A stretch of 46,961 bases of DNA, taken from assembly GCA_003990765.1 (NCBI GenBank), contig RBNJ01000049.1, forward strand, positions 1 through 46,961, given 5' to 3'. Position numbers and translations under genes: made by a program. Below are positions 16,693 through 46,961 of this stretch, one piece after another. Positions within the stretch are counted from its first letter, which is position 1; each line of letters starts with the position of its first letter. Source of the DNA: Jimgerdemannia flammicorona. Taxonomy: Eukaryota. Under the pieces are notes generated by a model. It was not told where the DNA came from. It worked only from the letters and a program-made list of their open reading frames with translations, and did not search any database.

Positions 16693-16738
<46 letters not shown>
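16693..16738. repeat. Poly(T) tract at the left border of the CpG-rich island
   Basis: 46 consecutive T. Confidence 0.9.
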
Positions 16739-16740
<2 letters not shown>

Positions 16741-18566
16741 ATGTTTCCGTAACCATTGGTTATGTGATAACTATTGTTCGCCCACCACAAAGTTACGGCT
16801 TCACATCCTGGGCATTGTCTTTCGGTGGTTCTACGGCTCGTCAAAAGATTCGTAGAATTTTCCAAAATCCGATATCCAACAACCGTGCCCCGATTTTTAT
16901 AATCTGCATACGACATAGGATATGTTAATTTATCGTCAAAAGTTCCCTCGATGTAATTCAGGAGAAATTATCGTGCATCCTTTCAGATACGCTCAAAATT
17001 TTATGTGAAGGTCTACTGATACAGTATTCTCGTTGCGCCGTGTCCGCGACAGTTTTGGCTGGACACAGTTTGACCCAGCCACGACAGGCTGCTCATTTGA
17101 TGGCAAGGTTTCAATGACGGGTTAGGCAAGTCATTAGACGGCAATGTGATTGGTGGGCCTTATTAACAACCTGCCGAATATATCAGCTAGCGACGCACAG
17201 TTGCGCCCCAGCGTCACGTTCGTTGGCCAGTTGGGTTGGTCAAATGACGAGGGGCCCGTCATTCATTCGCCCTAGAGCTTTTAGACGACCCCAAATAGGC
17301 GTACGTAACGCAATTGTTTTTTATTATTATTTTTTTATTGCTATCTTTACTACTACACTCCACTCACGTCTTCTACGCTTCTTCTACGCTTCTCCAACGC
17401 GCTCTCCAACGCGCTCTTCATACCACCGCCTCCCAATTACCCAACGACACTACTCCGCAAAACGGGCTTTTGGCCTGTGTTCGATCCTGATCTATCCGAA
17501 TTTACCGTGTACCGCCTGACTGGACAAGCTCACGCGCCTCTCTTTATGGACGTACAATGGCAGACCCATCCCACACTTCGACGGCTGAAAGCAGCGAACG
17601 AAGACACGTCCCACGCTACTTCGGCACCGTATCTGTCGCGCATGACGTTGGTCCAGCAGGGCAGCCACGGCGGTGGGGACCGGTTGTTCCTTTGCCACCA
17701 GTCCTTAGTTTCCAGAGTTCGTTGTCATGGGTGGTGCGTCACGAACGTGCGCTTAGCGGCCAGAGCCATTCGTGGCCTTTTGATTTTTACCTAGTATTTC
17801 TTTTCTGGTGACATGTCGAACACGCCACTCTCACACCCTCGACTACGCAACTCAAGCCAACAAAGTATCCGCCCATTGGTCACCGCCCAGTTTGTCGCGT
17901 GAAAGCCTTTGCTTCGTAAGGCGCTGCCATCTAACCCCCAAACCGCTTTCACCCCACCTGTAATGAGCATACCACGCCAAAATTCAAACGCCAATTGCCA
18001 ATTCGGTGGCACTCCAGTAACCTTCCTCGTTTGCTGCTCATGTGAGTTTAGCCTCTACTTTTCATCATCTCCCTTTTTGCTCCATGCGCCCTGGCGAGCA
18101 GCAGACTCGCGCACAATGTATACATGTCTAAGCAGACGATTCACATTCAACTCGCCGGACATTCAGTATCAGCAGAAGACGACATCACCATCGGTAGCTA
18201 AGGTACGTACTGGATAACGGTGTGAAGGTGTGGAGGTCCCGACTGGTATGCCGTAGACTGAAAACATCGGTGATGGAGGCAGGAATATATGTTTCCTTGG
18301 GAATTAAGCTGAAAACGTGGCATGATCGACAATTGAGCAGTGCCTTAATTGGCTGTAATATTAATTTCCGTACTTCATATCCATAAACAGCCGCCACATA
18401 AACAGGCGACGCTGATGGTTTCCGTGTATCTCGGGAAAAATTGGCGGCAAGTAAGGAGGCGGTGGGTTGTTTATGGCGTGGTATCTTTTACACGGGTGAA
18501 AAAAAAACAAAAAAAAAAAATACAAAAAAAAAAAAAACTAAAAAAAAAAAAAAAAAAAAAAAAACC

Positions 18567-20955: not shown

Positions 20956-21038
20956 CAGCCTTTCTCAGCTACCATTCATGTTATACATACTTTTACAACA
21001 CACTTTCAAGTTGTTTATTAGAGAAAGGTACTAAGGCA

Positions 21039-23080: not shown

Positions 23081-26000
23081 AAATACACTATACTTTATAA
23101 TAAATAGTACAACTAATATTTTTTCTTTGAATATGAATAGGTTACAGGATGCTTATCAATGAAGGAACATTTTTACTTAGCTGAAGGGATTGGAGGCCAA
23201 TCTCTTCCTCTTGTAGGATGTCAGGTATGAAGATGATTTAGATAGACTGGAATGGACAAAGAAATGGAGAGATGAGGCAGTTTGGAAGGGAAAGGTTGGG
23301 ATTCTGGTACAGAAAGGTAGAGGGGAGATAAGAGATATGCAGAGCTGGGGGGATAGATTGGTCTGGGGTGAGTGGATATGTACAGGATGAGAGCTGGTCA
23401 CAGTGGGCTCCTGTTACTGCCCTGCTGTACAGAGTGAGCATGTGGATTGGGTGAAGGGCCTTCAGGAGAGTGAAATCCTTGTAGAGGCAGGGGTGGATAT
23501 GCTTGGTGGAGACTACAATATGGTCTGAGATATACTGTTAGATAGAACAGATGGAGGATGGGGAGCTGAGGGTCAGAGTGGAGGACTGGCAGTATAGGAG
23601 GAAGTGAAAAGGCTGAGTGCTCTGGTGGATGTGGGTAGAGAGTGCTGGGGGAATAGGAGGGTATACATGCATTGAGTAGGGGGCTTGGAGATGAGAATTG
23701 ATTGGATTCTGACAGCTAGCTGCTGGGGCTTAGATGTTTGGAAGTTACTGGAGGTGGAATGGTGTCCTTGATTGGATTATTAGAGGCTTTTAGAACAGGA
23801 GCATTTTGGGGGGAGTAGGGATGGGCCTGGACATTGGTACTTCAATTCTTCCTTATTAGATGATAAGATCTGGTGGGATGAGTGGGCTGCAGACATTCAA
23901 CTGAGGGTAGAGTGTTAGAGACAGGAAGGTGCTCCAGTTGGTGTTTGGTGGATATGGATAAAAGAGATGGCCAGGACCTACTGAAGTGAGGCTGGCAAGG
24001 AGGCTGGGAAACAGAGGAGGTGATGGGTGAGATGAGCTTCTAGTAGACTGTCTAGACTCTTGGAGAATTGAGCAAGACTGGCAATATTGGAGGGAGAGGA
24101 GAATTGGAGATCAATGAGGGTAAAAAGGGAGGTTGGTGAACTACAACAGGTATTGCAGGAGGAGGAAGAGGCAAAGGTGCAGAGCTTGGCAGTGTGGCTC
24201 TGTTGGCAGGGTTTGGAAGAAGGGGAGAGACCCTCAAAGTATCTCACAAGAGCCCTTCAGGCAAGAAGGGTACAGCAAAGGTGGAAGGGGGTGCTTGACT
24301 CTGATGGTATACTGGTGCATGATATACAAGACATTCTTAGATCTTTAAAGGAGCATTGGAGTAGATTGTGGAGTAAGGAGGAGGGTGGGGCAGATGTGGA
24401 TACTATTGACCAAGTATTAGAGAATTGGCACCCCTCACGAGTAGATGGGTTGGGAGACTTGGTGTTGCCAGTACAGGAAGAGGAGATCCACCAGGTTCTT
24501 GCTGTGACAATGCTGGATATGGTACTTGAGAAGGACAGTTTACCCTGGGACTTTTGGAAGAAGATGGTGGGAATCTCAGGAGTACTGAGTGAGATGATAG
24601 TATTGTGTGATTTGATTCTATAGATGGAGAGATGGGTGGGGGAACAGGATCTGGGATTGGTGACATTGCTTTACAAGAACAAAGGAAGGCAAGAGGACTA
24701 GAAGAACTGGAGGCCAATTATGCTACTGAATATGGACAGAAAGTTGGTTACTAAGATGGTAGTCACAAGGCTACAAAAGGTGACCCAGCAAGTCTTGGGT
24801 ATTGAGCAGAGGGGCTTTGTAGGAGGCCAGCTCATTAGAGATGGTACAGCCTGGATACATAGAGTTATTGAAGAGGCACAAGCTAGTGGATTGAATGGAT
24901 GTCTGGTCTTTTTGGACAAGGAGAAGGCTTATGACCAGGTGAGGCAAGGCTGGCTGGCAAAAGTATTAGATAGGACTGGGGTTCCATACCAGTTCAGGTC
25001 AGCAATGGTCAGCCTACTGGAAGGGAGTAGGGCTGTACTCATATGTAATAAACATAGAGGGGTAGAATTTCCCCTGGGTAGGGGGGTGCCCCAGGGGGAC
25101 CCACTGTCCCCCATTCTGTATACTCTTTCTCTGGAACCCTTAATGGATAGAATCAGGTGGAAGATAGTGGGGCTCTCCATCTTTGGCATTGGGTAGAAAG
25201 TAAGGGCCTTTGCAGATAATATAGTGGTTGGACTGGGATCCATTACTGATGTGGAGGAGCTTAAGGAGATAGTAGAGTGGTATGAGGAGAACTCTGGGGC
25301 TAAACTTAATTGGCATAAGTGTGAAACAATGGTGTTAGGCAATGGTCTGATGGGAGGGGAGGTTATTGGAACAATTGTCCCTACTGATGAGACAGTGCAG
25401 TACTTGGGTATCTATCTGTCAGTATACAGGTCAGTTCTATCCAAGCTTTGGTGGAAGCAGTGGGTTAGAATCTGAGGAGAGGCCCTGCAGAGTTGGGAGG
25501 GTTGCCAATTGTCTCTGGCAGGGCATGTCTCGATTTTGAATATCTACTAGCTGCCAAAGTTATAGTATCTGGCTTATTATCTAGACTTCCCAGCCTGGGT
25601 GGTGAAGAGATTGATGAGGCTGGCCAAGGGATGGATCTGGGCTAGAAGAAGGAGTCAGATCAGCTGGGAGGTCTTGTCCTTACCAGTGGTGAGTAGTGGA
25701 CTTGGGCTGGTTGACTTTCCAAAGAGGCTACACTGCTTGAGAGCATGGTGGCTGAAGAGAGCCATGAAGTTGAGAGGGGGAGGTTGGGTTCTCCTATTAC
25801 AGAAGGTCTGGGAGATGAGGTCCTTGCCAAGAGGCTTGACTGGAGATCTCCTATCTTTGGTTGGCCTTCAGAATACTGAAAAATTGCAATATAAAGGCTT
25901 CTGGTGGGGGGTAGCAGAGAGGATGCACTGTATTGGAATTCATTGGCAAGAAAATGAAGAGGAGGTGGCTTGGGACCTGGTGATGTAGAGATGGGACTGG

Positions 26001-27723: not shown

Positions 27724-29305
27724 TATAACAGTGACCTCAGAATGATGACATTAGTACAGAAGACAGTCTTTCATTATAAGCTATCAGATTAGAGTATAAG
27801 AAGATTATATGGTATGACTCATCCAGGCTATAAGATAAGCAATGATGACCAACTGTGAGTCATTATGACCACAAGACAGATATCTTGAGAAATATAAAAG
27901 AAGGATCAAGAAACTGCAGTAGCAGCAACTCAAACAAAGCTTACAGAAATAGTTCAAAAGACTTACCATAAATAAAATGCCTACCACTCACTAAACCTCA
28001 AGGTCCAGGAACTACTAAGGCCCCTTAGTTCAGGAAAAGGATATTCTAAGACATCAGAAGAACTACATATAAGGATCCATACAAGAAGGACTTCTAGTCT
28101 CAACCTGGGTACTAGTGACTTTTATCATTATATCCTCTATTACTACAAAATGGAAACAAGGATCACTATTACTACCAAATGCCTCTGGATATAACAGGAG
28201 TATGAAATAGGAAACCTCCTCTACTGGAAATTCCCTCAGGCCAGTCCTTAAGAAATACAAGAAGCTACTTCTATAGATGTGCATGAAATAAGGATAGCCA
28301 AGAAGATTTATTAGGTATTTAGGTATATACTGTAGTTAATCTCCAACTTGGAGTATATTAGAATCTCAGACTTCAAGGAACTGTCAGCCTGCTGTACCAA
28401 TATACTGGAGACCATGGTGGCCACAGAAGTCCAGTCTACCATCACTCTCAATAGTGATAAAGTAGAAGAGTTCTGGTATCCCATCTTCTAGGATAATCTA
28501 GATCAATTCATACAAGGATTGATCTCAGTATTCCAAGACCCCAGCATCCAGGTTAGACCTCCTCAAGACCCCACATTTATTTCTTATTTTGTGGAAGAGA
28601 ATGTCATAGATTGGAGAGCCCCCACTACTACCAAATGAGATGATACCACCTATGATAATATTATCAGTAATGATGCTATCTCATGTGATATATGCAAAGT
28701 ACATAAAACATGTAATATTGTAAAATGGACAAAATATTCATGGATCTCATTTCCTTCAGCAGTGATGAAGATGAAGTCTCCATAGTCCTGAACATTCTAC
28801 TCTAAGTTCTTAGTAACACTGAAATCTTCTGGTATTCTTTTTCTATATGACTGAATTCTACTAGTAACCTTTTTCTATAATATCTGAATCTTTGAGTACT
28901 CTTTTTCTGTACTACTGAAATCTACTGGCATTCTGAACTTATACAACCATTTGTACAGATACTTGAATTTGTACTTACAACTGTAGTTTTCTGTGTTCCA
29001 GTATTTTATTTGATTATTGGAATTTATATTTAGCTTTATAACTTAGCAATCATTAAATTATATTTTATATAAATACCTCTTTTATTTCCTTTGAAATAAA
29101 GTCAGTCAAGTTCACTTACATTCAATTTTATATAAGTAATCTAAGAGATAACAAGACAGTTTAAAGATAAGAAGTTTGAGGACTATAAGACCTTGAGAAG
29201 GTACTCCAATAAGAACCTACTTATAACAAACTTGTGGTTAGTCTAAGAGATATACCTTGAAGAGAATCTGACATATTTAAAGGACTCAGTGACCACTATG
29301 TGACA
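27724..29305 (+). repeat. 5' LTR (~1.58 kb)
   Basis: Starts TATAAC (decayed TGTAAC), ends GTGACA; aligns with 34940-36324. Confidence 0.88.
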
Positions 29306-29308
29306 ACT

Positions 29309-29325
29309 TGGTATCCATTGGCTGG
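29309..29325 (+). promoter_or_regulatory. Putative primer-binding site (tRNA not assigned)
   Basis: TGGTATCCATTGGCTGG begins 3 nt after the LTR-terminal CA. Confidence 0.55.
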
Positions 29326-29425
29326 TGATTCAAGATGAATCTCTCACTTTTAAGCTGAAAAATGAACAACTATCACAACAACTACCCTGACTATAAGAGT
29401 CACCCCTACAAGAATTCAAAATAAG

Positions 29426-30250
29426 ATGGAAATGCATCTTTCTATATTCTATAGATATACTACCAAAGAGTCAATCCTGATCTTCATTGAAGACTTTGAA
29501 CAATTTGCTATTATACAAGCTCTCACCATAGATGCACAATTGGCCCTTCTACCTATCAGCCTCAGAGAACCTATCAGAGATAAGTTCAATGTAGTCACTA
29601 TTACTGATACTGGTATAGTCAAACTTGCCAATATAAAGACCTTTCTCAGAACTATATACTATACTGAAGAGATCAAGCAAGCTCTCAAGAATTAACTCAA
29701 TACTATCTACCAGAGACTTAGTGAAGATCCCAACTCATTCTATACCCAAATCTGTCACCAGATTATCTTGGCTGGCTATGATGATATCCTTAAGAAACAA
29801 ATAGCTGATTCAACCTTCCTCAAAGGAGTTTACCCTGAAATTGCCCTAGCAATCCAGTCTACTCCAGCTGCTCTGACTCTTAACCTGAAAGTGGTCTTTG
29901 TATAGAGATATTGGACTGTTAGACACCCTGCCAAACACTCAATGGAGAAAATAACTAGCATCAAGATAGAGCCATCAAAGCTAACCAATATTATACCTAT
30001 TATAGTTATAAACAGATAACTATCCCCACCTACCCCCAAGGTAGCCAAAGCTGACCCAGTGGAGGAACTTACCAAGCAGTTTGCTGAGATGACTGCACAC
30101 CTTAGTAATATTGTTAGAGAAGTCTGAAGTGCCAACAGGAGACTAGTATAGAGATTTGCAATTACTATAGAAAAACATAATATCACATACTTTAGATGTA
30201 GAGAAGAAGGCCACTATACAAAGAGTTATATGACTAAAACAAGATATAAA
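29426..30250 (+). pseudogene. gypsy gag, decayed
   Basis: FIEDFEQFA...LPISLREP, FLKGVYPEI, and a decayed knuckle YFRCREEGHYTKSY at ~30185-30230. Confidence 0.75.
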
Positions 30251-30799
30251 GCCCAACCAAGCAATACTATCAGAACTAGAGAATAAATCAATATAGTGGT
30301 TATTGAGGAGATTAGTGACACTGATGATAAAGAATACTATGAGAAGTCTGAATTCTACCCTATTACTGAAGGTACCAGATCCTGGTCTAAGCCTTATGAT
30401 AAGAAGAGCAACAGCAAGCTAGTTGGAAGACCAAAGAAGACCCCAGCTATCACTATTCAAAGCAAGACCCAACCCAAGGAGATTGATCAAGACATAGAGT
30501 TAGATGAAGCTGCCCACCAGATTATTGAAGACACTACTCCAGTCTCAGGAGAAAGCAAAAGCAAGAAAGAACAGAAGCTATATAAGATCAAGATCCACCA
30601 GTATGATATCTATAAGGACCTCAAGAAATAGAAGGTCAATGCTACTTTTGGATAGCTAGCCAAAGTCTCTGCCTTCAGATAGCAGTTGAGAGTAGAACTT
30701 GCAACTACTATTAAGAACCAAGAGTACAAGATCATATAAGCTCACAATGTATAAGAAGATGAATAAGAAGACTCAGATGAAGAATCTGAAAATCAGTGT

Positions 30800-33700
30800 A
30801 AGATATCAGCCTATATCTCATGTCAGATTAAAGATTGTATCTTTGATGTCATCATTGATACTAGTGCTAGAGGATGTCTCATGAGTAAGAAGACAATTGA
30901 CTACCTAGGTTGGGATATTGAAGAGTTTATCAAAATGGTCTATGTCACAGCAGATGGTATATAAGCTACCTCTCTAGGCAAGATCTGAGAAGTCTCCATC
31001 AAGATAGGAGGAGCTATCATCCTAGTAGACATAATTGTTACAAGTGCCACCAACTATGACATCCTCATTGGTAATCAATGGCTTCATAAGATCAAGACTG
31101 TCATTGATCTCAATGCTCAGAAGATGCAGATCAACTATAGAGGAAGAAAGGTATAAGTCTCTATCAATGTCTACAAAGGAGTACTACCAGACATAGAGGA
31201 AGGAGATGAAGAGAACACAGAAGTCTTTATACACTTAGTATATAAGAACAAGAACAAGACACCCAAACTCACAGATGAGCAGTAGTATAACAAGATCATT
31301 GATGACTATGTCTCTCAAGGAAGATACCCCCATGATACTAGGATATACTGCTCTGAACACCTGAATGACTACTGGTCCTGTATCAGTAAAGTTAGAAAAA
31401 TCTGTCAATAAAAGCATAAGCAAGAAGCTGCTGAAGCAAAAAGGAAAGCTGAAGAAGATACCCAGCTCCCAGAGCTTCAAGCTGATAGTGATGATAAGGA
31501 GGAACAAGAACTAGATATTACTCTCAAGGTCAAGAAGTTTCATTCTGAAGCCAAGATCTCAGAATATAAAACTGAAGGAGCCATAAGAATAGATCTTGCC
31601 AGTATTCAAGATACTATTCTCAAACCACAGACCACTACTCTACTTGGTACTGGAATTGAAGTCAAGTTACTAGAGAACTATGCTGGAATTATCAAGACTA
31701 AGAGTAGTCTGGCCAAAAGTGAAATCTCAGTTAAAGGAGGAGTAATTGACCCTGATTATACTGGTGAGATCTTTCTCATAGTCAGGAATCACAACTCCAT
31801 CACCCCATTCAAAGTCAAGAAGCATGACAGAATTGGCCAGATGCTGATCCATACTGAAGCCATTGAACTTATCAAGACCAAGAGAAGAGAATAAGGCTTT
31901 GGATCTACTGGAAGAGGAGCCTATACTACTACTAAGATTACCAAACTCAAGCATAAGAAAGACAAGGGCCAGAATAAGCACACATATACTATTGGAGAAA
32001 ACTTTCTCCTAGAAGAACAACTTCTCAAGATCCTATATCAGAATAAAGAAGTACTCACCACAGACTTCAGGGATATTCACAATCAAGAACTCAAGTACTA
32101 CTATAAAGTTGACACAGGTGATACTAAGCCCATCTACCAGAAAGCCAGACCTATACCACCTGCCTACAGAGAATGGCTGTGAGCAGAACTCAAGGAAATG
32201 GAAGAAGCTGGAATTATCAAGCAAGCTATTAGCCCCTAGGCTTCACCTATTGTCCTTATCTCAAAGAAAGGAAGCAAGCCTGGAGAGTTTGTCCCAAGAC
32301 TCTGTATTAATTATAGAAAGCTCAATGTAATCACTACAGCTCTTACCAAATATTCAAGAAATCCTTACCACTCTTGGAAGCAAAGCCAAATACTACATCA
32401 CCTTAGATCTGTTCTCACTCAAGATACCAGTAAGAAATCAGCCTTCATCATACCTGATGCCACATATGTCTACCTATAAATATTATTTGGAATATACAAT
32501 GTCTTAGCAAGTTTTCAGCAAATAATGAATAGAGTCTTTAGCAATGAGATTGGAAAATGGCTTTTTATCTATATTGATGATGTGATCATCTTCAGTAATA
32601 CTATATGGGAACATATCAACTACATACAACTGGCTCTCAAGAAGCTCAAGGAGCATGACCTCTATATTAAGCCCAAGAGGTGTAAGTTTGCAGCTCAGGA
32701 AATTGTCTACCTAGGACACATCATTAATCAGACTAGAATTCACACAGACCCCATAAAGATTGAGGCTATTGCAGCCTATCCAAGATCTAGAACAACTACA
32801 GAAGTCCATGCCTTCCTTGGACTGGCCTCCTACTATAGAAGATTTATCAAAGAATACTCCAACATTGCAGCACCTATCTATGAGCTACTGAAGAAGGAGA
32901 CCAAATTTGAATAGACCAAGAAATGTCAAGAAACCTTCAATGAACTCAAGCACCCATCCTTAGAAGACCAGATTGGAACCTAGAGTTCATCCTGCAGACA
33001 GATACAAGTACTATAGGACTTGGAGCAGTCCTAGCTTAGAAGAAAGATGGACATGAATATATTATCTCCTATGTAAGCTAAGGTATCTATAGAGCAGAAC
33101 AGAACTACAAGTCATGCAAGCTTGAATGCTTAGCAGTAGTCTGGACAGTAGATAAGTTCTACTACTATCTAGCTGAGAAATACTTCACTATTTAAACAGA
33201 CTATTCTGCTCTTGCCTGGCTATTCCACACTCTGAACCCCAAAGGAATATATATCAGATGGATCTATAGGCTGTAAAAGTATAACTGTACTGTTAAACAC
33301 CACTCAGAAAGAACTAATGTCAATGCTGATACACTCTCAAAGATACTCCAAAATACTCTCATTAAGACTATTCAACATGAATAAGGAGCTATATTATGGA
33401 TTAATCAGCTATGTTGGGCAGCAGAAGATACCCAACTATCTTGAACCCTGGATTATCACTATCATCAACCAGACTTGGAAACAATTTGAACTAGACAACA
33501 CCACACTCAGAAAAGGAGGAAAGCTTATAATATCTGAACACAAAAAGTATCAAGTAATGAAGGAAGTATATAAACAAAAATACCTAAGAGGAATCAATAT
33601 ATACAATAAAGCAAAAAGAACTATATGGTGGCCTAAGATGGAAGAAGATCTGCACCAATTTATCAAAGAGTATGACAAGTATCAAAAACAGAAATAAGAT

Positions 33701-34624
33701 CAGTAAGACCAGGTACCTGAGTTATCAAGAATTGAGCCTATTCCCTTCCACTACATTGCAATAGATATTATTGGATCACTACTAGTAATACTATTAAAAA
33801 ACCACTATATTATAGTTATTGTAGACCTCTTTACCAAATAGATAGAAGCAGGAGCATTACAAGAAGCCAATACTCTCTCTATAGCTGACTTCCTATACTG
33901 AGAAATAATCTACCACTATAAGATACTAAGATAAATCACCACAGACTGCAGCACAGAATTTGTCAATAGATTCTATGAGATAATATATCAGAAATATAAG
34001 ATTCAGCACATCAAGACCACTACATACTACTCTCAAGGAAATGGACAGACAGAGAGAACCAACAAGACCCTCAAGAATATTCTGGTGATGATCTTAGACA
34101 CATATGACAATTGGGATAACTATCTCCCAACTGCTCTCTCTATCCTATGAGATATACAGTCACAGAGTATATACTTTACTCCAAGAGAACTACTCTTTAG
34201 AGAAGAAGATTCTGATGAAACCTCAGCCACAAATCTAGACCTAACTTAGAGATGAGTTAACTCAGAAATCCAGAGACTATACCAAATCAGGAAAAAGGCT
34301 GAAGATTATATCATCAAGTTATAAGTGCTGATAAAAAAGAATGTAGAAAAGAATCACAAGACCCTAGAACCCATTCAAATCAGAGAAAAGGTTCTACTAT
34401 ATTGAAATATGGTAGAAGCCTCATGGTCATGAAAACTGGAGCTCAAATGAGAAGAACTCTTCTATGTGCAAGATATCAAGAGAACTACCTTCTGGCTTAA
34501 AAAACTCTCAGAAACTATACTGCCTACTATAGTATACAGGAACAGACTCAAGAGGTACCATGAACCTATACAAGAGAAGTAAAATATGATGACTACCCAT
34601 GAGGTTCTAGTCTATGAATCATAA
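30800..34624 (+). pseudogene. gypsy pol (PR, dUTPase, RT, RNase H, integrase), decayed
   Basis: IIDTSA at 30851, ILIGNQWL, YIDD at 32570-32581, FLGLASYYRRFI, GLGAVL, ECLAVVW, GNGQTERTNKTLK, VYRNRLKRY. Confidence 0.92.
31523..31912 (+). pseudogene. dUTPase domain between protease and RT
   Basis: IDLAS...GTGIEV...KSSLA...GGVIDPDYTGEI...DRIGQMLI...GFGSTG (all five trimeric dUTPase motifs). Confidence 0.92.
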
Positions 34625-34929
34625 CAGTATGTCTCATGATCAGCAGGAAATTTGTCTGGACCATTCTCTAAGGAATATGGTACCAGTAACTACTCATTCA
34701 TGAGACTTTCAAAGCCAGAGGAGTTTGAACTATCAACTGATTGGTCAAGATCAGAATTAGACCCTTGCTCTATATAAAGAGAGTGACCCTTCACCATCAT
34801 ACCAAAATACATAAAGAAGATGCCAGCTCATAAATACCACTTTTTGACCCCCTACCAGAGGTTATGAGATTAGCAAATTTTTCAGGACTGGACTAATGAA
34901 TAAGAATGTTCAAAAGAAGATTCTTATTC

Positions 34930-34939
34930 AGGAGGAAGA
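34930..34939 (+). promoter_or_regulatory. Polypurine tract
   Basis: AGGAGGAAGA immediately before TGTAAT of the 3' LTR. Confidence 0.8.
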
Positions 34940-36324
34940 TGTAATGGTGACCTCAGAATAATAACATTAGTACAGGAGACAGCCTTTCCTTACAAGTCAC
35001 CAGATTAGAGCACAAGAAGATCATATGGCATGACTCATCTAGACTACAAGATGAGTAATGATGACCAACTGTGAGTCATTGTGACCACAAGACAGACATC
35101 TTGAGAAATATAAAAAAAGGATCAAGAAACCACAGTAGTGGCAATCCAAATAAAGCTCACAGAAATAGTTCTAAAGACTTACTATAAACAAAATGTCTGC
35201 TGCTTGTCAAACCTCAAGGTCCAGGAACCACTAAGACCCCTCAGTCTAGGATAGTATGTTCCAAGACATCAAGAGAGCTATGGGGATCTATACAAGAAGG
35301 ACTCCTAGCCTCAATCTGGGTACTGATAACCCTTATCATTATATCCTCTACTACTATGAAATGGAAACAAGGATCACTATTGCTACTGAATACCTCTAGA
35401 TATGGCAGGAGTATGAAATAGGAAATCTCCTCTACCAGGAGTTCCCTCAGGCCAGTTCTCAGGAGATTCAAAATACCACCTCCATGGATATATATGAAAT
35501 AAAAACAGCAAAGAAGATGCATCAGATCTTCTGGCATACACCATAATTGATCCCCAACTTAGAGTACACTAGGATCTCAGACTTTAAGAAACTGTTAGCT
35601 CACCACACCAATACACTGGAGGCCATGGTGGCCACAGAGGCTCAGTCTACTATCACCCTTAATAATGATAAAGTAGAGGACTTCTGGTATCCCATCCTCC
35701 AGGACAACCCAGATCAATTCATGTGAGGATTGATCTCAGCATTCCAAGGCCCCAGTATCTAGGTTAGACTTTCCCAAGACCCCACATTTGTTCCTTATTT
35801 TGTAGAAGAGAATGTCATAGATTAGAGAGCCCCTGCTACTACTGAATAAGATGACATCACTCATGATGATGTCATTAGTGATGACATCATTCTACACAAC
35901 ATATGTAAAACATGCAAAATATGTGACATATGTGAAACAGATGAAACATTTGTGGACCTCATCTCCTTCAAAGACATCCTGTCTCCAACCTCTGGCCTTA
36001 ATAATAGTGATAAAGATGAAGCCCCCATAGTCCTGAATATTCTGCTTTAAGTTCTTAGTAATACTGAATTCTACCAACATCCTTTTTCTGTATAACTGTA
36101 ATTCTTCTGGTATTCTAATCTTGTGTAACTCAGAATTCTTCTGGTATCTTTTTTCTGTATTACCAAAATTCTACTGGTATCCTAAACTTATACAACTATT
36201 TGTATAGATACTTAAACTTATACTTACAACTGTAGTTTTCTGTATTTCAGTATTTTATTTGATTATTGGAATTTATATTTAGCTTTATAACTTAGCAACT
36301 ATTGAATTATATTTTATATAAATA
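34940..36324 (+). repeat. 3' LTR, truncated by the LINE E insertion
   Basis: Aligns with 27724-29075; homology stops after TATTTTATATAAATA. Confidence 0.9.
35193..36050 (+). pseudogene. Decayed ORF (~286 codons) of unknown function inside the LTR; second copy at ~27977-28810
   Basis: Single frame from AAACAAAATG (ATG 35193) to TAA 36050; most internal stops are TGG/CAG/CAA in the other LTR copy. Confidence 0.6.
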
Positions 36325-39300
36325 GGCAGCTCTCTCTGGTAACATTTAGGTTACACAACCTTTTGGCAATACTTTTGATATAGTTTCTGGAAAAAAGCTA
36401 CTAGTATCATAGCAACCAATGAGTATTCCAAGGTACATACTGGGCAGAATAGCCTGGGTGCATTTGACTGACAGTATGTGGGGAGGGGCCCTGGCTTGGG
36501 GAGAAGTATGAGGGGCCTACTGGTGGGAGGATATAGTAGGAGAGGAGGTAGTGCTAGAGGTCAGAGGACAGGGAGGGTGAGCTTTGTGGATAAGGTGAAG
36601 GGGGGTCAGCAGAGAGCTGAGATAGAGGGCTGGCTTAGGAGGGACAAGGAGATGGTAAAGACTACAGGGTAGCAGCCTCAAGGGGGAGTCTCTCTGGGGG
36701 GCCAGAGTAGTGAGGCTAGTGGTGTAGAAGCTGAGGGGGTGACTGCTGATGGGAGTGTGATGGGTGATCAAGAAAAAAATCTAGATGAGACTACTGATGG
36801 TAGACTGAGCAGTGAGAAAGGCATAAGGTCTAGTAATCTGGCAGATGGTGTAATGGGACTGGTGGTGGCACTGTTACTCAAGAAGTTGATCTTGGAGTTT
36901 ACAGTCACCTTGTGCTTCTAGGGCTTAGCAGTGACAGCAAAAATAGTCCTGGGGCTGATTGCTGAGCAGATGGCTAGAGTGGCATCTATAAAGTTCCTGA
37001 AGAGACTGGAAGGAGTAAAGATTGGCTTCAAGGAGACTGGACCATTGGAGGAGGCACTGAAGGCAGGGTTGATAGTTGGAGAGGTGTGTATTCTGATAGT
37101 ACACTACTTGAGGTGGGACCCCAGGGTGGTGTAATTGCTGGTGAAAGAAGTGCCCATGGTGACCACTGAGGAGATAAGGAGGAGAGTTGAGGAAGTCATA
37201 GTTGAGTATAGCGAGGTGGTCAATATTGGGTTCCAGGTCTAGAAGGAGACCTCATTCAGGACTAGAGATATTGATGTTCAAATCTGATTAGTAGGGAAGG
37301 AAGCTACCAGGAGGGCTAGGAACTGGCCTTCAGTGATGGTCTGGGGGGTTTTTTTGTGTAAGGTGATGAGGGTAAAGGGGAGTGAGGAGGAGGAGGAAGA
37401 TCTGCTAGAGGCACTGAAAGAGCTGAGCAGTACTGTGGAGTGGAGGGCTAAGGCTTAAAAGGTATATGTCAAGTCAATGCATTTGGAAGTGGTGGATGGA
37501 AATAGAATTTGGGTAGATAAGGGGTGGTAAAAAAGATCCCAAGAACACAAGAGGCAGAGAGGGCTGTTGGTGAAACTGGAAAGCAGGGCAAAGAAGAATG
37601 CTAATAGTGTTGAAATCATGGGGGGAGCCAAGGAGAGTGTCTGGGCCAGCAAGGATAGAGAGAATACAGAGAAGGGGCCAGGAGGGGGAGAGGAGGTGAA
37701 GGAAAATAACCCTTATGCAGATGATATCTTTGAGGTCTGAGAGCCATCCCTGACCCCTATGTTACTTATTAGACAAGATCCAGCTTTAAGGGGCAGAGTA
37801 GCAGAGGATGTGCCCATGTGGGGAGTCCAGAGAGTATACTTTAGAGTTTCTGAGGTGGTAAAGAGGGGGTAGGTGGTGGTGGTGGGCAAGGATGAGCTGG
37901 TGGATATTCAGAAAGAGAAGTGGAATAAGACTATGAGTATAGGGGCTGATATCTCAATGCTGGATAGAGGGCAGCCAGTGACTTCTGAGAGGAAGGAGGT
38001 GGAAAATCTACTATGGATATGCAAGATGATAAACAACTTTGCAGTGGAGGAGTTGGGGGAGGTAGATCTGTAAGTGATGAGTGATGAGTATTAAGCATGT
38101 ATCCTATATAGCAAGGGAGTAGTGGAGGTACTGAAGGTGGAGATCCTTGCAGTTTTCCTTGAGAAGGAAGGGTATGAGGTTGATAAGGAGAGGGAGACTG
38201 GGCTGGTGGTTGCTGCTAGTGAGAGGGCTGCTTTCTGTTGGGTGGAGCAGCATGGGTTGAAGCTCTGACAGGAGGCCTGTCTGGAATATCATGAAGAATT
38301 CAAGAAGGAGGATGGGGAGCTTATGGAACTTCTGGCTAGATTGGAGGCTAAGAGGGCTGAAGAGGAGGAGGAAGCTGCAGAACATGATCTGGACCTGGCT
38401 CAGGATGAGATAAACATGGAGCAGTAGAGGATATACTTACTATTATATATTATTCTTTATAAATAGTACAACCAATATTTTCTCTTTAAATGTGAATGGA
38501 CTCTAGGGTTCATTTTATCAATGGAATATTTTTGCTTAGCTGAAGAAATTGGAGGTCAATCTCTTTCTTTTGCAGGATGTCAGGTGTGAGGATAAACTGA
38601 AATGGACAAAGAAATAGAGAGAGGAGGCAGTTTGGAAGGGCAAGATTGGGATTCTGGTCAGGAAGAGCAGAGGGGAGGTATGGGATGTACAGAACTGGGG
38701 AGATAGGCTGGTCTGGGGTGAGTGGATTTGCACTAGTTGGGAACCAGTTATGGTCAGATCCTGCTACTGCTCGGTGATACAGGGTGAGCATATAGAGTGA
38801 GTGAAGGGTCTCCAGGAGGAAGGGACTCTGGTAGGGGCTGGAGTGGATGTGCTTGGTGGGGACTTTAATATGGTTAGAGATATACTATTGGATAGAACTG
38901 ATGAAGGGTGGGGGGCAGAGAGAAGGAGTGGAGGTCTGGAGACATGGAAAGAAGTAGAGAGGCTGAGTGCTTTGATGGATGCTAGCAGAGAGTTGTGGAG
39001 TGACAGAAGGGTGTATATATATTGGGTGAGTGGCCTGGGGATGAGAATTGACTAGATTTTGACAGCAGACTGCTGGGGTCTGGATGTTTGGGGGTCTCTG
39101 AAGGCAGAATGGTATCTGTGGTCTGATCATTGGGGACTGCTGGGACAGGGCCATTTTGGGGAGAGTGGAGATGGATCAGGACATTGGCACCTCAACTTCT
39201 CTCTGGTAGACAATAAGGTACTATGGAACAAGTGGGCTGAGGATATTCAGCAGAGGGTGGAGGGGTGGAAATGAGAAGGTGCCTTAGTTGACATTAGGTA

Positions 39301-40897
39301 GATAAGGCTGAAGGAGGCTGCTAGAGTCTATTGGAGGGAGGTAGGTATGGCAGCTGGGAGATAGAGGAGGAAGAAGAGGTTGTGGGCCTCTGCTAGATTG
39401 ATGAGGCTGTTGAAAGATTTGGTAGACTTGGTGGCCCTAGAGAGGGTGGAGAATTGGAGATTACTATGGGTGAAAAAGGGGGTTGTGGAGTTATAACAGA
39501 TATTGCAGGAGGAGGAGAAAGTACAGATACAGAGTATGGTAGTATGTCTACATTGACAGGGGCTGAAGAAAGGAGAGAGGTCCTCTAAGTTTCTCACAAG
39601 GGCCCTTCAGGCAAAGAGAATTCAGCAGAGGTGAGAAGGGGTTCTTGATTCTGAGGAGACATTGATGCATAGTATATAAGACATTCTCAGATCACTTATG
39701 GAGCAGTGGAGTGGCTTGTGGAGTGAGAAGGAGGGTGGGGCTAAAGATGCCACCATTGGTCTTACCTTAGAGGATTGGCACCTGCTATAGGCAGAAGGGC
39801 TGGGCAACCTAGTAATACTGGTGCAGGAGGAGGAGATTTACCAGGTTCTTATCACAACTATGCTAGATACAGCACCAGGTAAGGATGGCCTACCCTGGGC
39901 TTTCTGGAAGAAGATGGTAGATGTCCCCAGTGTGCTGGGAGAGCTGAGGGCACTCTCTGATTTGGTACTGTAGTCCAGAAGATGGATAGGAGAGCAGGAT
40001 CTGGGGCTGGTGGTGCTGCTGTATAAGAACAAGAGTAGGAGAGAGGACTGAAAGAACTGGAGGCTGATCATACTACTGAACATAGACAGGAAGTTAATTA
40101 CTAAGATGGTAGTAGCAAGGCTGCAGAAGGTGGTCCAGCAGGTCTTGGGGGTAGAGCAATGGGAATTTGTTAGAGGCCAACTTATTCAGAATGGTATGAC
40201 TTAGATATATAGTGTTATTGAAGGAGCATAGGCCTGTGGATTAGATGAGTGCCTGGTCTTCTTGGATCAGAAGAAGGCATATGACTGTGTTTGAAGGGTC
40301 TGGTTGGCAAAGGTACTAGATAGGATTAGAGTCTCTCAACAGTTCCGAGTAGCAATGGTCAGTCTACTGAAAGAGAGCAGGGCTGTACTCATGTGTAATG
40401 GGCATTGAGGGGTGGCTTTCCCTCTGGATAGGGGTGTTCTCCAGTGAGACCTGCTGTCTCCTATTTTGTATATACTCTCCTTGGAGCCCTTAATGAATAG
40501 GATTCAGCAGAAGATAGGAGGGCTTTTAGTTTATAGCATTGAGTGGAAAGTTGGTACTTTTGTAGATGATATGGTAGTCAGCCTGAGTTTGATTACCAAT
40601 GTTGAGAAGCTCAAGGAGACTATAGAGTAGTATGTATGAGGCACACTCTGGGGCTAAACTCAATTGACATAAGTGTGAAACAATGGTACTGGGTAATAGC
40701 CTGGTAGGGTGGGATGTCATTGAAACAATTGTCCCTGCTGGAGAGGCAGTAAGGTACTTGGGCATCTATCTGTCAATATATAGATCCATTCTTCCAAAAC
40801 TCTGATGGGAGCAGTAGGTGGGTATCTGGGGGGAGGCCTTGTAGAGCTGGGAAGGCTACCACTTGTCTCTAGTGGGGCATGTTTCCATCTTGAATAC
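36325..40897 (+). mobile_element. L1/Tx1-like LINE copy E, 5' end to late RT, interrupted by a gypsy insertion
   Basis: Collinear with copy D; GGDFN, SDH, APGKDGLPW, FVDD at ~40558; homology ends at TTGAATAC|TGTAAT. Confidence 0.92.
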
Positions 40898-42105
40898 TGT
40901 AATGTGCCTGGCTCAATAGAGGCAAATTACAAGGTTGGGGGTTAATGTAGTTTGGCTTAAGCCCTCAGTTACTTTGTCAAAAGTAACAAAATGTTCTAGG
41001 ATTCCTGAGGTCCTTAGTGTTTAGTAGTATAATTGTCAAAGCTGGATATCTGTGAGCAATTTATATATCAATTTCCTAATTGGGATGGTTCTTGGAGTGT
41101 AGTGGCAATTTGTAAATGGGTTTTCTTCTTGGGTCAACTGGGAATTAGTAGAATTTCATATATAGCATGAGTGGTTTCCTTCTTGAGTATTAGGCGATTT
41201 CTATATAGTACAGTGATCTCCTTATACATAATGGTCTGGCAATTTAGCAGTTTTCCTCATGCAATTTCTGCATGATGATCTCTGTATAGCATAATGATCT
41301 CCAAAGGTATGCAATTTCTGGTAGATAACTTGATTTAGGTGCAGCTTCTCTAAAATAGTAGCTTACTGAGAATTATACTAGTGGCAGATTCTTCTGCACT
41401 GGGCTTACTAAGAATAATAAATAACTTGGATAGCACAGATTCTTCCTGAATCAGCGGGCTCTTCTGGGAATATTGGATAACTCAAAAATAGTAGATGACA
41501 TGGATTCTTCTGAATTGGCAGACTTCAACTGAGAAATATAACTGACAGCTTTGGGAAAGGGTCTCTTAGCAAAGTTGCATCAAAGACTGGCTTTGTTTGT
41601 ACAAATAGATTCATTGTGAAGTTGTGTCAGAAACTGGCTTGAGCAAGGTAGCTTTCTCTTAGGTAGTGGAAAAGGCAGAAATCTTCAGGCTTATCTAGTA
41701 AGTGAACTAATAGTACAGCTTATTCCTTAAGTAGTGGGTCTTTAGTCTTAGTCTGGCAAGTATACCAATAATTCCAAAGGTGTCAAAGTTCTTCACTTGA
41801 ACTTGGTGGCAAAATCTTCAAGCTTTATATCGAAAAGTGGACCAGAGTGAGGAAATAAGCTTACAATCTCCTAGCAGTAGCTATAGAGTTTCTCTCGAAG
41901 TGTGGTAGGCAGACTTGTCTTTTGCTTCAATTTCAGACTGAGGTTTATTCACTCTTATCTCTGGGGTAATTTATAAATTGTGGTTGCTATTTGATTATTA
42001 TGTGGCTAACTATAGATTTGCTACTAATAGCAAGTGTGCAGATCTGGCATGGGTGTATAGGTCTTGTATAGGTGTATAGGTCTTATACAGATATACAGGT
42101 CTTAC

Positions 42106-42140
<35 letters not shown>

Positions 42141-42313
42141 TATACAGGTCTTACACAGGTATATCTTATCTGGTAGTCTAGCTATTTATACAGTTTTATA
42201 CAGTAATAGTTACTGGTTACTATGCTATATGTTTACATCATCTGGCTAAGTTACTAATTATTCATGTCATCTGGCTAAATTATAATTTGGATGATATATT
42301 TTGGTTTGTCACA
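40898..42313 (-). repeat. 3' LTR (~1.4 kb) of the third gypsy element
   Basis: Minus strand TGTGAC (42313)...ATTACA (40898), preceded by PPT-like TTTAGTGGGGGCTGA (42328-42314); only one copy in the window. Confidence 0.75.
42089..42155 (+). mobile_element. Poly(A)-only retroinsertion with 18-bp TSD
   Basis: AGATATACAGGTCTTACA at 42089-42106 and 42138-42155 flanks TT plus about 30 A. Confidence 0.75.
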
Positions 42314-45300
42314 TCAGCCCCCACTAAAGGATGGTCTGTCCACAGACTGTTCTTTAGTCATCATCCTAGTGTGGGTAAGCATCTTCTGCATCAATACCTG
42401 TTCTGTTATCTTCATCATCTGTACCATGATTGCTCCATTCCAAGGGTTCTTCTTCTTCTTCTGAGAACAGAATTTCAACAGCATTGATGATACTCAGATA
42501 GATGGTCAGATTCATTCTTTATACATTCTACCAGAAAAATTGTGCCTGTAATAAGACTGCAGAATTATATTTATAAAGAGTGTAGAGCCTGTCTGCAGCA
42601 GTGGCATCTCTTCTTGATAGTTCTGTGGTGCTTCAGATGTATATTTGTTCTGAGACTAGAAGGTTCTACAATTATTCTCTAATTATATAGTGGGTCTGAA
42701 GTTGATGGATCTGTAACAATCATCTGGCTAGGACAAGATTCTCTTGATGAATCTGAATTCTCTAGAGAGTGTTCCCATTGACTTCTCAAAATTGGAGTAG
42801 GGGAACTAGTAGTGATTGAAATGAGCTAAGGACAAGAGTCTGGAGGCAGTTGTCAGCTCTCTGATTCATGATGTAGGGGGAAGGTATATCTTGAGACAAT
42901 TGATATATACTGGTGTCCTCATAGTTCATCCATCCATGCCTCTTAAATAGATGCTGGTTCCTCTGATGTTGTGTACAAGATAAGATCCTTCTTATTTAGG
43001 CTCCAATTTGGTGACAAAGTTTGTTTCAATTATACTTCTCCAAACTAGTACTTGATCTCCAATCTTGATCTTCTGGTCCTTCTGTTTTTGATCATAGTAC
43101 TTCTTTTGTCTTTCTTGGGCTTTGGTAATCTGAACTCAGGTCTGATTACATAACTATTCTGCCTTCTTGAGGAGGTCTCCAAAATTCTCATGGTCAGCAG
43201 TTCTGGTTTTCTTGGCAAACATCATTTTGAATGGCTTTTGTTTGCAGGGGTATTCTGAATTTTCCATAGGATCTCAGATAAGTAAAGATTCCAGTTGGTA
43301 AGATTGATCTGGGAAAGTTCTTTCTTAATAGTCTGGTTCATTCTTTCTGTCATGCCATTGGTCTGTGGGTGATATGATGTAGTCCATTTGAGGTGGATCT
43401 TGTGAATTCAGGCATAACTTGTGATTATGTTGATGATGAATTCTGTGCCTCAGTTAGAGATAAGTTCTTCTGGGGGTCCATATCTGAGTGTGAGTCTATG
43501 GAGAAGGCCTACAATGGTCAAGGTATCTGCAATTTCCATTGGAAAAGTCTCAGGCCACTTGGTCAGGTGTTCCACAAATATAAGGATGTACTTGTTTCTT
43601 CTTAGTATAACTGGTAGGAGTCTAATTATATCTACTCTCCATCTCTGAAAGATGTTATCTGGTAGTGCAATTGGTTGCAATAGTGCTTAGTAGTTCTTCC
43701 TTCCTTAGTACTTCTGGCATATGTTACATTTCTTAAGTATGTCCCAGACTTATATTCTGAGGTTGGGCCAATATTGGTGTATTGTTTGTAGCTTTTCTTC
43801 TATATTCACTGTCCCTGGTGGGCTTTCTGATGTTCGTTTTGGATGAGATCTTCTTGTGCCTTAATAGTCTGAGGAGCTTTCTTTAGAGTGTAGTTCCTCA
43901 GGACACCCTTCTTCTAGTTCATTGGGGGTGGCAGGAAAGTACATCAACATTGTTGTGAGCTTTCTCTGCCTTGTGAATAATAGTGATTTGTAATCCTAAA
44001 GGATAAGGATCCAGTGGGCTAAGATTCCAGTAGATTCCTTATGGTTGAATAACCATTTGAGGGCTGAATGGTCAGTTATCAGAGTGAATCTTTTTCCAAT
44101 AAGATAGTGTTTGAACAGGGTAACTGCCTATATGACTGTAAGGCATTCCAATTTGGTACTGCCATAATTCATCTGCTGCTGATTGGTAGCTCAGCTTGCA
44201 TAAGCTATTATATGATATTGTTGGTCAGGTCCTTCTTGGGCTAGAACTGCTCTCAGGCTATCTTTGGAAGTATCTATATACAAGATGAATAGCTTCTGTA
44301 GATTGGGGCAGATGAGGATTGGTGCTGTGGTCATGTGGTTCTTAAGTTCCTTGAAGGCTTTTTCTTGTGACTCTGTCCATTTATAAGGTACTCCTTTCTT
44401 GAGAAGAATTCAGATTGGAGCAGCAATTTGGGCAAAGTCTTTGATAAACCTTCTGTAGTAGGATACTAGCATCAGGAATGATAGTATTTCCTTTGGGGTC
44501 TTGGGTACTGGCCAATTGTTGATCTTCTCAGTTTTCTTTGGGTCTATATGGGTTCCTTCTTTTGAAACTACAAATCCAAGGAATTCAAGTTTCTGTTTCC
44601 CAAAATAGCATTTCTTGGTATTGAGTCTCAAATAGTTCTTGTGAGTGAGCTTGAAGAATTCTTCTAAGTAGTGCAGATGTTCTTTGAAATTTGCTGAATA
44701 GATGTTGGAATCATCCATATATACAATTAAACAGTAGTAGATCAGGGGGGCATAAACTGAATTCATCATCCTCTGGAAGGTGGGGAGTATATTGCAAAGT
44801 CCAAAGGGTATTTAGAGGTATTCAAACAGTTTTTCTAGAGCAAGGAAGGCTGTCTTCTGAATGTCATTGGGGTCCATGGGGATTTCATAGAATCTTGCAA
44901 AAAGGTCCATACTGCTGAAGTATCTGGTATCTTGTAGCTGATCCAAAAGGTCATCAATTCTGGGCAGAGGATAGGTATCCTTTTCTGTAACTGAATTGAT
45001 TTTTCTATAATCTATACAGAGTATCCATCTTCCTTTCTTTGGTATAATAAGTATAGGGCTGGCCCAGAGACTGGTAGAGGGTTGGATAACTCCATTGTCT
45101 AAGAGTTCTTGAATGTGCTCCTTTTCAAATATTTTTAGGTGATGGGGTATTCTATAGGGTTTCTGCTGGATGGGTGTTGTATTTCCTGTATTGATGCTGT
45201 GGTAATATGATGGATTGTATGGCAGATTGCCATAATTGGTGGTAAAGATATCTTGATATTTGTTGAGGAGTTCTACTAGTTATTGCTTCTGCTGGGGTGT

Positions 45301-45740
45301 CAATTCTTCTCCAATGTTGGTGGAAGGTTTCACTGTCTCCTGGATCGCAGAGGGGTCTTTCCTTTCTTCTGGAACCTTTTGCCATTTTCTGATAAGTTTA
45401 GTTCATAAACTTCTCTATGGATTCAGCTGAGAAAAGGCACCAGATGTCCTATGATGGTTCCTTTTGGTAAGATGATAGTTTCCCAACTTTGGTTGGTTGC
45501 TCAGGAATATACTGAGTTTATCTTGTCAGAGAATGTGTGTCCTTCTATGTCCAGATGTGGGATATCTTCATTGGGTTGGAAGAAAAGATTTCTGAGGTCA
45601 GGTGGGACAAAGATTTCGAAGGTGGTTTGTTCTCCAGGCTCCAGGATGAGATTCTTATACAGTTTGACTGATTGGTGATATACTTGCTGGGGGATATTTC
45701 TCTTGAGGTAGTTGACTTGAAGGAGATGTACTTCCTTCTT

Positions 45741-46145
45741 ATCTGAACTTCTAAATCCTTTGGCTTGTCTTATTTCTTTAGTCAGTTCAGAGACTTTTTA
45801 TAATTGTGAGGTCTTGACCTTCATGAAGACTGCTTGGGCAATCTTCTGTCCTCTGATGATTCAGTGCCATTCTGTACTACTGTTGTATAGAATGACCTTG
45901 ATTTTGCCTATATATTCTGGGTCAATAGTTCCTCCTTCTACAGTTATTCCTTGTCTGGCAAGTTCAGATCTTGAGGTCAGTTGGATGTAAGCTTCTTGGG
46001 GTGGCTGCATGGCCAGTCTAGTTCTGATCATGAATGTTTTTCCAGACTTAATGGATTCATTCTCCAAACTGTGAAGATCATACCCTATATCTTCTGGGTG
46101 GGCTTTGGTTGGGAATTTGGCCTTAAGATGTAACAGAGCATACTG
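45741..46145 (-). pseudogene. dUTPase domain upstream of RT
   Basis: PTKAHPEDIGYDLHS...SRSELARQGITVEGGTIDPEYIGKIKVILYN...RIAQAV...KGFRSS. Confidence 0.92.
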
Positions 46146-46944
46146 GGCAATATCCTTGCTGAGTTCAGGCTATTCTAGGGCTGAAGCTCCACTAGCAGAG
46201 AGCCTCCAGACTCTGAGGTTGAGGTGTAACCATCTGGCTCCAGTAGAGAGGTCTTGGAGATAGTTGATTCCTCTTCTTCTTGTAGGGTCTAGGGCTTCTA
46301 TGAAGTTGGTGGCATCCTCTACCCATCCTTGGTGAGTTGTATGTCTGATGAGAGCTAGGATGTCTTCTCCTAGATTGTAGATCTTGAGGATCCTTCTTTC
46401 TGGCTTCTTGGTCTGGCTTTTTCAAATCTGGCCTCTGTTATCTTCTCTCTTCAGAGTGTGGATCACAACATTATGACTGAGGTGAATCTTCTGATATTTG
46501 CAATCTCAGCAGTCTAGATGTTTTTCATGGTTACAATATTCCATTGCTTGAAAATGCTGTTTCTGGTTATTGATCTCTTATTGTCTCAGGAATTGGTATC
46601 CATCTTCATCATAAGTTGAGGGCAGAGTAAATAGGGAGTATATTTCTGTTTGGGTGAAGAAACCTTGTCCTCTGAATCAGCTTTGCAATCTGGTGGTGAT
46701 TTCTTGAAAGATAGTTGACTGTGCAACTATAGTTAGGAGTTCTGATCTTTGGGGCCTCTGTCTTTCCTATTGGTCCAGTAGATAGCATTGGTAGCAGTAG
46801 TTTCAGAGAGAGTGGAAGGTTATTTGGTATAGACATCTTCTTAGCTGAAAAGCTCTTTCTTGGTGAGTTTCTTTCTTGGGAATAATGGGGATTATGCTGG
46901 ATCCTTCTTCTATATTCCAAGGGTCATTATTCTTGAGTAGTGTC

Positions 46945-46961
46945 TTTTTTTTTTTTTTTTT
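46945..46961 (-). repeat. Poly(T) at the window edge, probably the tail of another retroinsertion into the gypsy pol
   Basis: The T-run abuts gypsy coding sequence; truncated by the window. Confidence 0.5.

Follow-up and report, generated by a model that had tools for sequence, protein, structure and literature searches.

An open reading frame inside the long terminal repeats of fungal Ty3/gypsy elements, its conservation and its possible role

Open reading frames (ORFs) within long terminal repeats (LTRs) are known from retroviruses, namely sag of mouse mammary tumour virus (MMTV), primate lentiviral nef and the LTR ORF of bovine foamy virus, and sag makes the MMTV LTR long (1.3 kb; PMC2664473). 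Foamy-virus Tas (Bel1) is a protein of ~300 amino acids (aa) with an N-terminal DNA-binding part and a C-terminal activation domain, and is made from an internal promoter that precedes the 3' LTR (PMC9241813). Among LTR retrotransposons, additional ORFs in sense orientation were described behind pol, before the 3' LTR, in plants and rotifers (PMC7264820, PMC5408684), and dUTPase-bearing Gypsy elements are known from fungi, e.g., Tmt1 and PosPlaTy3 (PMC2864245). Here we analyse 46,961 nucleotides (nt) of Jimgerdemannia flammicorona (contig RBNJ01000049.1 of assembly GCA_003990765.1, forward strand; hereafter the window), which hold a decayed dUTPase-bearing Ty3/gypsy element whose two LTRs carry, as had been predicted, one common frame (27977-28805 and 35193-36050). 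Matches to PF04082, a transcription-factor family of fungi, number 44 in this genome and zero in 14 control genomes, in keeping with a fungal source. On the evidence of its genomic copies, this frame is a real, separately started third gene under purifying selection, carried by a group of fungal Ty3/gypsy elements; we call its product the accessory protein.

Since the accessory protein has no transmembrane segment and its gene no 3' overlap, Tas with its internal promoter is, by way of analogy, a closer parallel than MMTV sag or nef of human immunodeficiency virus. The accessory protein resembles Tas in being ~300 aa long and non-membrane and in joining an N-terminal folded part to a C-terminal acidic region, while its gene has a predicted second promoter ahead of the main LTR promoter. 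It differs from Tas in that no sequence or fold likeness was found in Pfam, PDB and fold searches (a family unlisted there being possible), in that its host is an env-less fungal Gypsy element, and in that three of the four families have both the gene and its predicted promoter within the LTR; because of this position the two are doubled in the element and survive in solo LTRs. With sag, nef and the bovine foamy virus ORF it shares the placing of a long ORF in U3, the 5' part of the LTR, but nef reaches into U3 only in part, whereas the accessory ORF lies wholly within it. Sag is a membrane glycoprotein superantigen, and both sag and nef belong to vertebrate retroviruses; the accessory protein lacks a transmembrane segment and bears no likeness to either. 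The accessory protein belongs neither to sag nor to env, and probably not to Tas either.

The additional ORFs of plants and rotifers are likewise an extra 3' gene kept in most copies and common to distant lineages, and their layout is identical to that of our family B (see below), but they are internal and either env-like or enzymes (GDSL, DEDDy), whereas the accessory family is soluble and mostly lies in the LTR. Tmt1 and PosPlaTy3 are similar in carrying a dUTPase in pol and in spanning chromovirus and non-chromovirus lineages, but section 5 of PMC2864245 names no LTR-encoded gene; the legend of Figure 3 of that paper mentions an 'add. ORF' of unknown function, which may bear on novelty, and the accessible part of PMC3248453 contains nothing on extra ORFs. 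Our search, which did not extend to most subscription journals or to Repbase/GyDB, brought up no paper describing a gene within the LTR of a fungal Gypsy element. LTRs are usually taken to be non-coding, and those left behind as solo LTRs to be dead; here a whole open gene lies within them.

Evidence that the LTR frame is a selected gene

The 3' copy in the window (35193-36050) consists of an ATG, 284 codons and a TAA, i.e., the predicted 286 codons without a frameshift, with eight internal stops, while the 5' copy contains three frame-shifting indels and one 33-nt deletion. Three stop positions were said to be common to both copies, and they indeed lie at codons 14, 118 and 219; the estimate of about eight stops present in one copy only was too low, as we counted 11 (five private to the 3' copy and six to the 5' copy). 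Stops at codons 14, 118 and 219 occur in 9/29, 19/29 and 10/13 of the other aligned copies, respectively, and these positions are decay hot spots, not fixed stops.

A protein search of the genome yielded 7444 candidates, among which 136 copies were scored. The frame is uninterrupted (no internal stop) in 36 of them, and all 36 are situated in LTR sequence: counted from their flanks, nine lie in a 5' LTR, seven in a 3' LTR and eight in a solo LTR with a 4-nt target duplication, while three are unclear and nine are without an end. Selection was assessed on a likeness set of 31 copies, composed of the 5' LTR of the window and the 30 best among 40 DNA matches scored from 3587 candidates, which were picked irrespective of openness. 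No column of the ORF frame (0/276) holds a stop in at least 90% of the 31 copies, as opposed to 4-17 such columns in each of the five other frames. The terminal stop is present in every copy (31/31) and the ATG in 17/31, and 18/31 ORF spans are divisible by three. Site diversity at codon positions 1, 2 and 3 is 0.166, 0.127 and 0.216 (p 2e-7), and it is flat on either flank of the ORF (p 0.68 and 0.48); the integrase control gave 0.125, 0.117 and 0.154 (15 copies). Moreover, indels common to at least two copies come in multiples of three in 10/11 cases inside the ORF vs. 4/23 outside (p 7e-5), and over all 67 aligned copies in 28/33 vs. 6/41. When 250 pairs were drawn at random, the ratio of non-synonymous to synonymous differences (pN/pS) came to 0.48 (transversions) and 0.67 (transitions), lower than in any of the five other frames. 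The checks proposed with the original prediction, i.e., a multi-copy search for fixed stops, codon-position bias and a selection ratio below 1, thus came out in favour of a gene. Two points count the other way: the +1 frame has a transversion pN/pS of 0.57, near the value of the ORF frame, and the copies are related and their pairs not independent, so that the p-values above overstate the significance.

Two other ways of accounting for the frame were rejected. Since several in-frame codons upstream of the ATG are stops in 27-31 of the 31 copies, i.e., fixed, the ORF is no extension of pol that could be reached by read-through. An antisense reading meets 4-15 fixed-stop columns in the minus frames. 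Contigs of three sequencing runs (X1 to X3) were inspected and not used as evidence. The records consulted listed no RNA data set containing the frame. In X1, which we guess to be RNA, the summed depth is ~200-2,000 over the LTR and ORF but 0-2 over the final 1 kb of pol, with strand, start and level unreadable from contigs; of the differences inside the ORF, 14/20 among the best-supported rows lie at third codon positions. Contigs of X2 and X3 cover both the LTR/ORF and the pol end.

Position of the gene in the LTR and in related families

We refer to the lineage of the window element as family A. Its natural LTR measures ~1,525 nt and runs from TG through an upstream TATA box (position 156), the ATG (242), the stop (1078), short repeats, the main TATA box (1288) and the AATAAA signal (1315) to CA; among the 67 copies, the upstream TATA is conserved in 64, the main TATA in 62 and the poly(A) signal in 61. 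The stretch behind the ORF contains 2-5 occurrences of a degenerate 10-nt word in 31/36 open copies, and over 45 nt the region of the main promoter shares 80% identity with the LTR promoter of family B. Because the main TATA and the poly(A) signal lie downstream of it, the gene is in U3, and, as for sag, wholly so. U3 content is not at the 5' end of genomic RNA; the ORF would therefore be absent from that end and translatable only from a separate message. We infer that the conserved upstream TATA supplies the promoter for such a message and that each LTR, solo ones included, would be a complete small transcription unit. Target duplications of family A are 4 nt long (ATAT, ATAG, ATAC, GTAT, GTAG and, once, TTGA) and often lie within TA-repeat DNA.

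The features of the window element all lie on the plus strand. Its 5' LTR (27724-29305, 1,582 nt) ends with CA ahead of the primer-binding site, and in other copies homologous LTRs border gag starts and pol ends. It contains the upstream TATA box (27893-27899, at the conserved LTR position), the broken ORF copy (27977-28805; profile match 28069-28662, E 6e-81) and, 3' of the ORF, the putative main TATA box and poly(A) signal (29066-29100). The primer-binding site (29309-29322) starts with TGG 3 nt past the LTR end, an arrangement found at the equivalent place in nine other 5' LTRs. The decayed gag-pol (29400-34630) comprises gag, protease, dUTPase, reverse transcriptase (RT), RNase H and integrase; Pfam recognised the dUTPase (E 6e-20), RVT_1 (E 2e-12) and rve with Integrase_H2C2 (E 2e-5), while gag, protease and RNase H were assigned by eye. 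RVT_1 lies 5' of Integrase_H2C2 and rve, in agreement with the Ty3/gypsy order protease-RT-RNase H-integrase, and two LTRs, a primer-binding site and a polypurine tract (PPT) define an LTR retrotransposon. Pfam detected no chromodomain in this decayed copy of the integrase, which thus gives no sign of a chromovirus. The PPT (34930-34939) abuts the TG of the 3' LTR, as it does in seven other 3' LTRs. The 3' LTR (34940-36324) carries an upstream TATA box (35109-35115, 84 nt 5' of the ATG), the ORF (35193-36050), a U3 stretch of short imperfect repeats with candidate enhancer or response elements (36051-36314) and the main TATA box (36315-36324), just past which, at 36324, an unrelated repeat cuts in, so that the poly(A) signal and U5 are missing. 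The LTR pair is 81.5% identical (1098/1347 aligned nt). The predicted LTR length of 1.6 kb is thus right for the 5' LTR and wrong for the truncated 3' LTR (1,385 nt). The suggestion that the gene accounts for the long LTR is borne out, as the ORF fills ~840 of ~1,530 nt and family B, with the gene outside, has LTRs of 0.8 kb.

Database matches to the accessory protein are all unnamed proteins from JGI and ENA: five at 61-88% identity, five further representatives down to 35%, and 11 found by profile search. On one metagenome contig the integrase end, LTR start and ORF start are arranged as in family A. Distant database proteins, used as bait, revealed that this genome holds more such families. 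Family B (118 scored copies of 6095 candidates) is a chromovirus (chromodomain PF00385, E 7e-12) in which a single homologue lies outside the 0.8-kb LTRs, between the integrase and the PPT; its stop codon sits directly on the PPT in 20/23 distinct copies, the other three being cut or frameshifted. In family C (150 scored copies of 4647), the homologue lies inside LTRs of 2.35 kb (one full element with both LTRs and two partial ones). Family E, a chromovirus by the likeness of its chromodomain, has an ORF in LTRs of 2.07 kb, which is colinear with the accessory protein (24% identity over 121 columns, hhalign probability 9%) and scores 4-17 bits with the profile in 12/12 copies, vs. at most 5.4 in 20 shuffles; it is probably a fourth family with a homologue. 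A TATA-like word precedes the ATG by 60-90 nt in all four families (61-73 nt in 27/27 copies of B, 62 nt in 18/18 of C, ~77 nt in 11/12 of E), within the LTR in A, C and E.

Identity of the accessory core is 41% between A and B, 30% between A and C and 36% between B and C, and RT identities are similar (38-44%). RT trees group A with C and B with E; hence, the position inside the LTR (A, C, E, as opposed to just before the PPT in B) occurs on both sides of the tree, among chromoviruses and non-chromoviruses alike. The closest pair for the accessory gene, A-B, differs from the closest RT pair, which could reflect module exchange or rate differences. The dUTPase lies between protease and RT in A and C and before the protease in B. 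From this distribution, the gene appears to have changed its place relative to the LTR from family to family, and three families with it inside and one outside would form a natural series for studying the origin of LTR-encoded genes such as sag or nef. The original prediction of an unrecognised accessory protein in a Ty3/gypsy LTR is therefore upheld by naturally open copies, selection and protein conservation across distant families.

Several further structures were noted in these families. A non-coding segment of ~255 nt is 76% identical between chromovirus B and non-chromovirus C, whose RTs share only 40-44%; it lies in the integrase-ORF gap at G000:C227, upstream of the 3' LTR at G000:C86, and, at G000:C5, within LTRs of 1.48 kb that belong to yet another family. 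Rfam and ARAGORN (tRNA) searches of 3' regions including it gave nothing above noise, and the segment suggests exchange of a 3' module or a conserved RNA signal. The 1.48-kb LTRs (G000:C5:10660-12142 and 15536-17018) begin like a family-E LTR and have the shared 3' segment in place of the accessory ORF, without a long open frame or a match to the accessory profile; they look chimeric. A family-A element at G000:C1117:7484-11398 has a family-B element of 3.9 kb nested in it, which possesses both LTRs and the accessory ORF but gave no pol match.

The protein and its possible function

The accessory protein measures ~270-330 aa across families. No hydrophobic segment or signal peptide was found in 13 full-length rows (highest 19-residue hydropathy 0.43-1.02) and no conserved cysteine among aligned relatives; the protein is soluble by its hydropathy, and modelling indicates that it is mainly helical. 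AlphaFold2 was uninformative on near-identical copies (predicted local distance difference test, pLDDT, 36); an alignment of 18 rows was used instead and gave a mean pLDDT of 63.6, with 138 residues at 70 or above, a predicted helical core at 14-33, 44-163 and 190-216, and values under 50 over the tail (217-278). The ORF of the 3' LTR in the window would accordingly be divided into a basic arm (~1-40), a helical core (~45-215) and an acidic disordered tail. The first 40 residues are basic, while the tail is strongly acidic with aromatic and leucine clusters. Despite 15 different tail lengths (56 to 73), the motif F-x-D-L-I-S-F occurs in all 36 open family-A tails, and the end P-x-[VI]-L-N-[FI]-L in 34 of them.

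Pfam gave no match for the window copy and a best E of 0.03 for the 18 aligned members; PDB sequences searched with the profile gave no match at E 10, and PHROGs, phage records and viral contigs none. Searches with the predicted model, one of the checks suggested beforehand, brought no recognisable relative, the best results being E 0.36 (Foldseek PDB), E 0.11 (BFVD) and Z 4.3 (VIA-align; 83 aligned, root-mean-square deviation 3.3), with no helix-turn-helix match standing out; such negatives are no proof that the fold is new or that kinship is lacking. In the ESM Atlas, the A protein had a best match of 0.83 with low recognition and a second match to an unnamed cluster commonest in Mucoromycota, and the family-B core had mixed matches at 0.92, all of which we treat as leads only. 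No longer protein (600-2000 aa) holding the domain was found among 6397 candidates, which is weak evidence. By these searches the accessory protein constitutes a new family with no recognised fold, in an unusual place.

Its composition makes a transcriptional activator, encoded by the element and organised like foamy-virus Tas, the function that we tentatively favour. The relaxed and strict rules for acidic activation domains (PMC10550315) are compositional and tuned on human factors; the relaxed rule is passed by 35/36 and the strict rule by 23/36 open family-A tails, and the relaxed rule also by four B rows, two full C rows and 2/3 E rows, as opposed to 0/5 control proteins. In the mechanism that we postulate, transcription would start from the upstream TATA and end at the poly(A) signal of the LTR, so that 5', 3' and solo LTRs would each work as a complete small unit. 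The basic arm and helical core would find the promoters of the element, the acidic-aromatic tail would recruit coactivators, and the main LTR promoter would thereby be switched on in a genome where repeats become methylated and eroded. A PPT upstream of the gene would place it in the LTR and a PPT downstream would leave it outside, the position within the LTR being gained or lost by a shift of the PPT.

Several points weigh against this explanation, of which the activator function is the weakest step. No response element common to both promoters was shown, and transcription from the upstream TATA is a deduction from sequence. With 17 basic and 25 acidic residues in the query copy, the core that follows the basic arm has an acidic net composition, which is unusual for a DNA-binding domain, and Pfam, PDB and fold searches pointed to no known DNA-binding family or fold. 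The activation-domain rule is compositional and human-tuned, acidic tails also occur as chaperone, DNA-mimic or adaptor-binding regions, and the homology of family E is weak at the values given above. More speculatively still, an env-less fungal Gypsy lineage might have arrived independently at the design of complex retroviruses, with an activator or anti-silencing factor under its own promoter in the LTR, solo LTRs as autonomous cassettes acting in trans on cognate elements and perhaps on nearby host genes, and the cassette exchanged between chromoviruses and non-chromoviruses; we consider this conceivable rather than likely. Either an activator or an anti-silencing factor would offer a handle on the very high copy numbers of Gypsy elements in a repeat-eroding fungal genome.

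An anti-silencing factor aimed at its own element, comparable to the VANC proteins of VANDAL transposons in plants and directed against RNA silencing or DNA methylation, is the less likely of these two functions. The silencing pressure must be strong, as CpG observed/expected is near zero in the repeats of the window (0.00-0.06, vs. 0.9-1.2 in gene-like stretches), and such a factor would fit the short repeats in U3, the nuclear-type basic arm and an own promoter permitting expression before the full element is active. However, no likeness to a known silencing suppressor was found in Pfam, PDB and fold searches, the tail composition directly fits an activator, and the gene-bearing copies are CpG-eroded as much as other repeats.

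The tail motif could instead mark a cytoplasmic adaptor, its clathrin-box-like residues tying virus-like particles to membrane traffic or disturbing that traffic. The constancy of F-x-D-L-I-S-F amid varying tail lengths and a like motif in family B and the metagenome relatives would agree with this, and clathrin boxes that read L-hydrophobic-x-hydrophobic-[DE] have been described from viruses (PMC10132805). We nevertheless regard it as improbable: the strict motif is present in only 6/36 A copies and in none of four B rows, with near matches in the other A copies and in B and absence from C and E, it arises by chance in gag and pol controls as well, and its residues equally fit an activation motif. 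The literature search returned no paper linking clathrin with LIDFS.

Slightly less probable again is a negative regulator made from an internal start, exerting copy-number control or excluding related elements, for which Ty1 p22 and foamy Bet are models. Its separate promoter and its intactness in solo LTRs, from where it could act in trans, would suit such a role, but it bears no likeness to the Gag of the element itself and the carrier families are very abundant (thousands of first-look candidates). An Env-like or movement protein was suggested by the homologue of family B, which occupies the env position between integrase and PPT, and is largely refuted and very improbable, given that there is no hydrophobic segment or signal peptide, no conserved cysteines, and that only in B does the gene lie between pol and the 3' LTR, the other three families having it within the LTR. 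Least credible is a non-functional frame, i.e., a chance opening or a piece of host sequence copied along passively, which the lack of shown expression and of a known family might favour and which is refuted, as far as sequence can do so, by the codon-position bias, the in-frame indels, the conserved start and stop, the 30-41% identity kept across distant families and, as weak evidence, the lack of a longer host protein with the domain.

Other features of the window

The repeat that cuts the 3' LTR belongs to a strongly GC-skewed, CpG-free family with several copies in both orientations (36325-41000 on the minus strand, 21000-26000 and 8500-15000). A second decayed Gypsy pol occupies 41000-46961 (minus strand; RT 44341-45207), and the RT tree places it as the sister of family C; the accessory-ORF profile found no match beside it. 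At 3440-4075 (minus strand) lies an intron-less NFACT-R frame (PF05670, E 4e-32) followed on its strand by a long poly(A) (poly-T at 3286-3365); it is probably a processed retrocopy, its source presumably being a CCDC25-type gene. Finally, a 343-nt inverted repeat (1555-1897 and 2051-2393), with arms 95% complementary and 153 nt apart, lies beside a GC-rich, CpG-intact stretch (1-2000).
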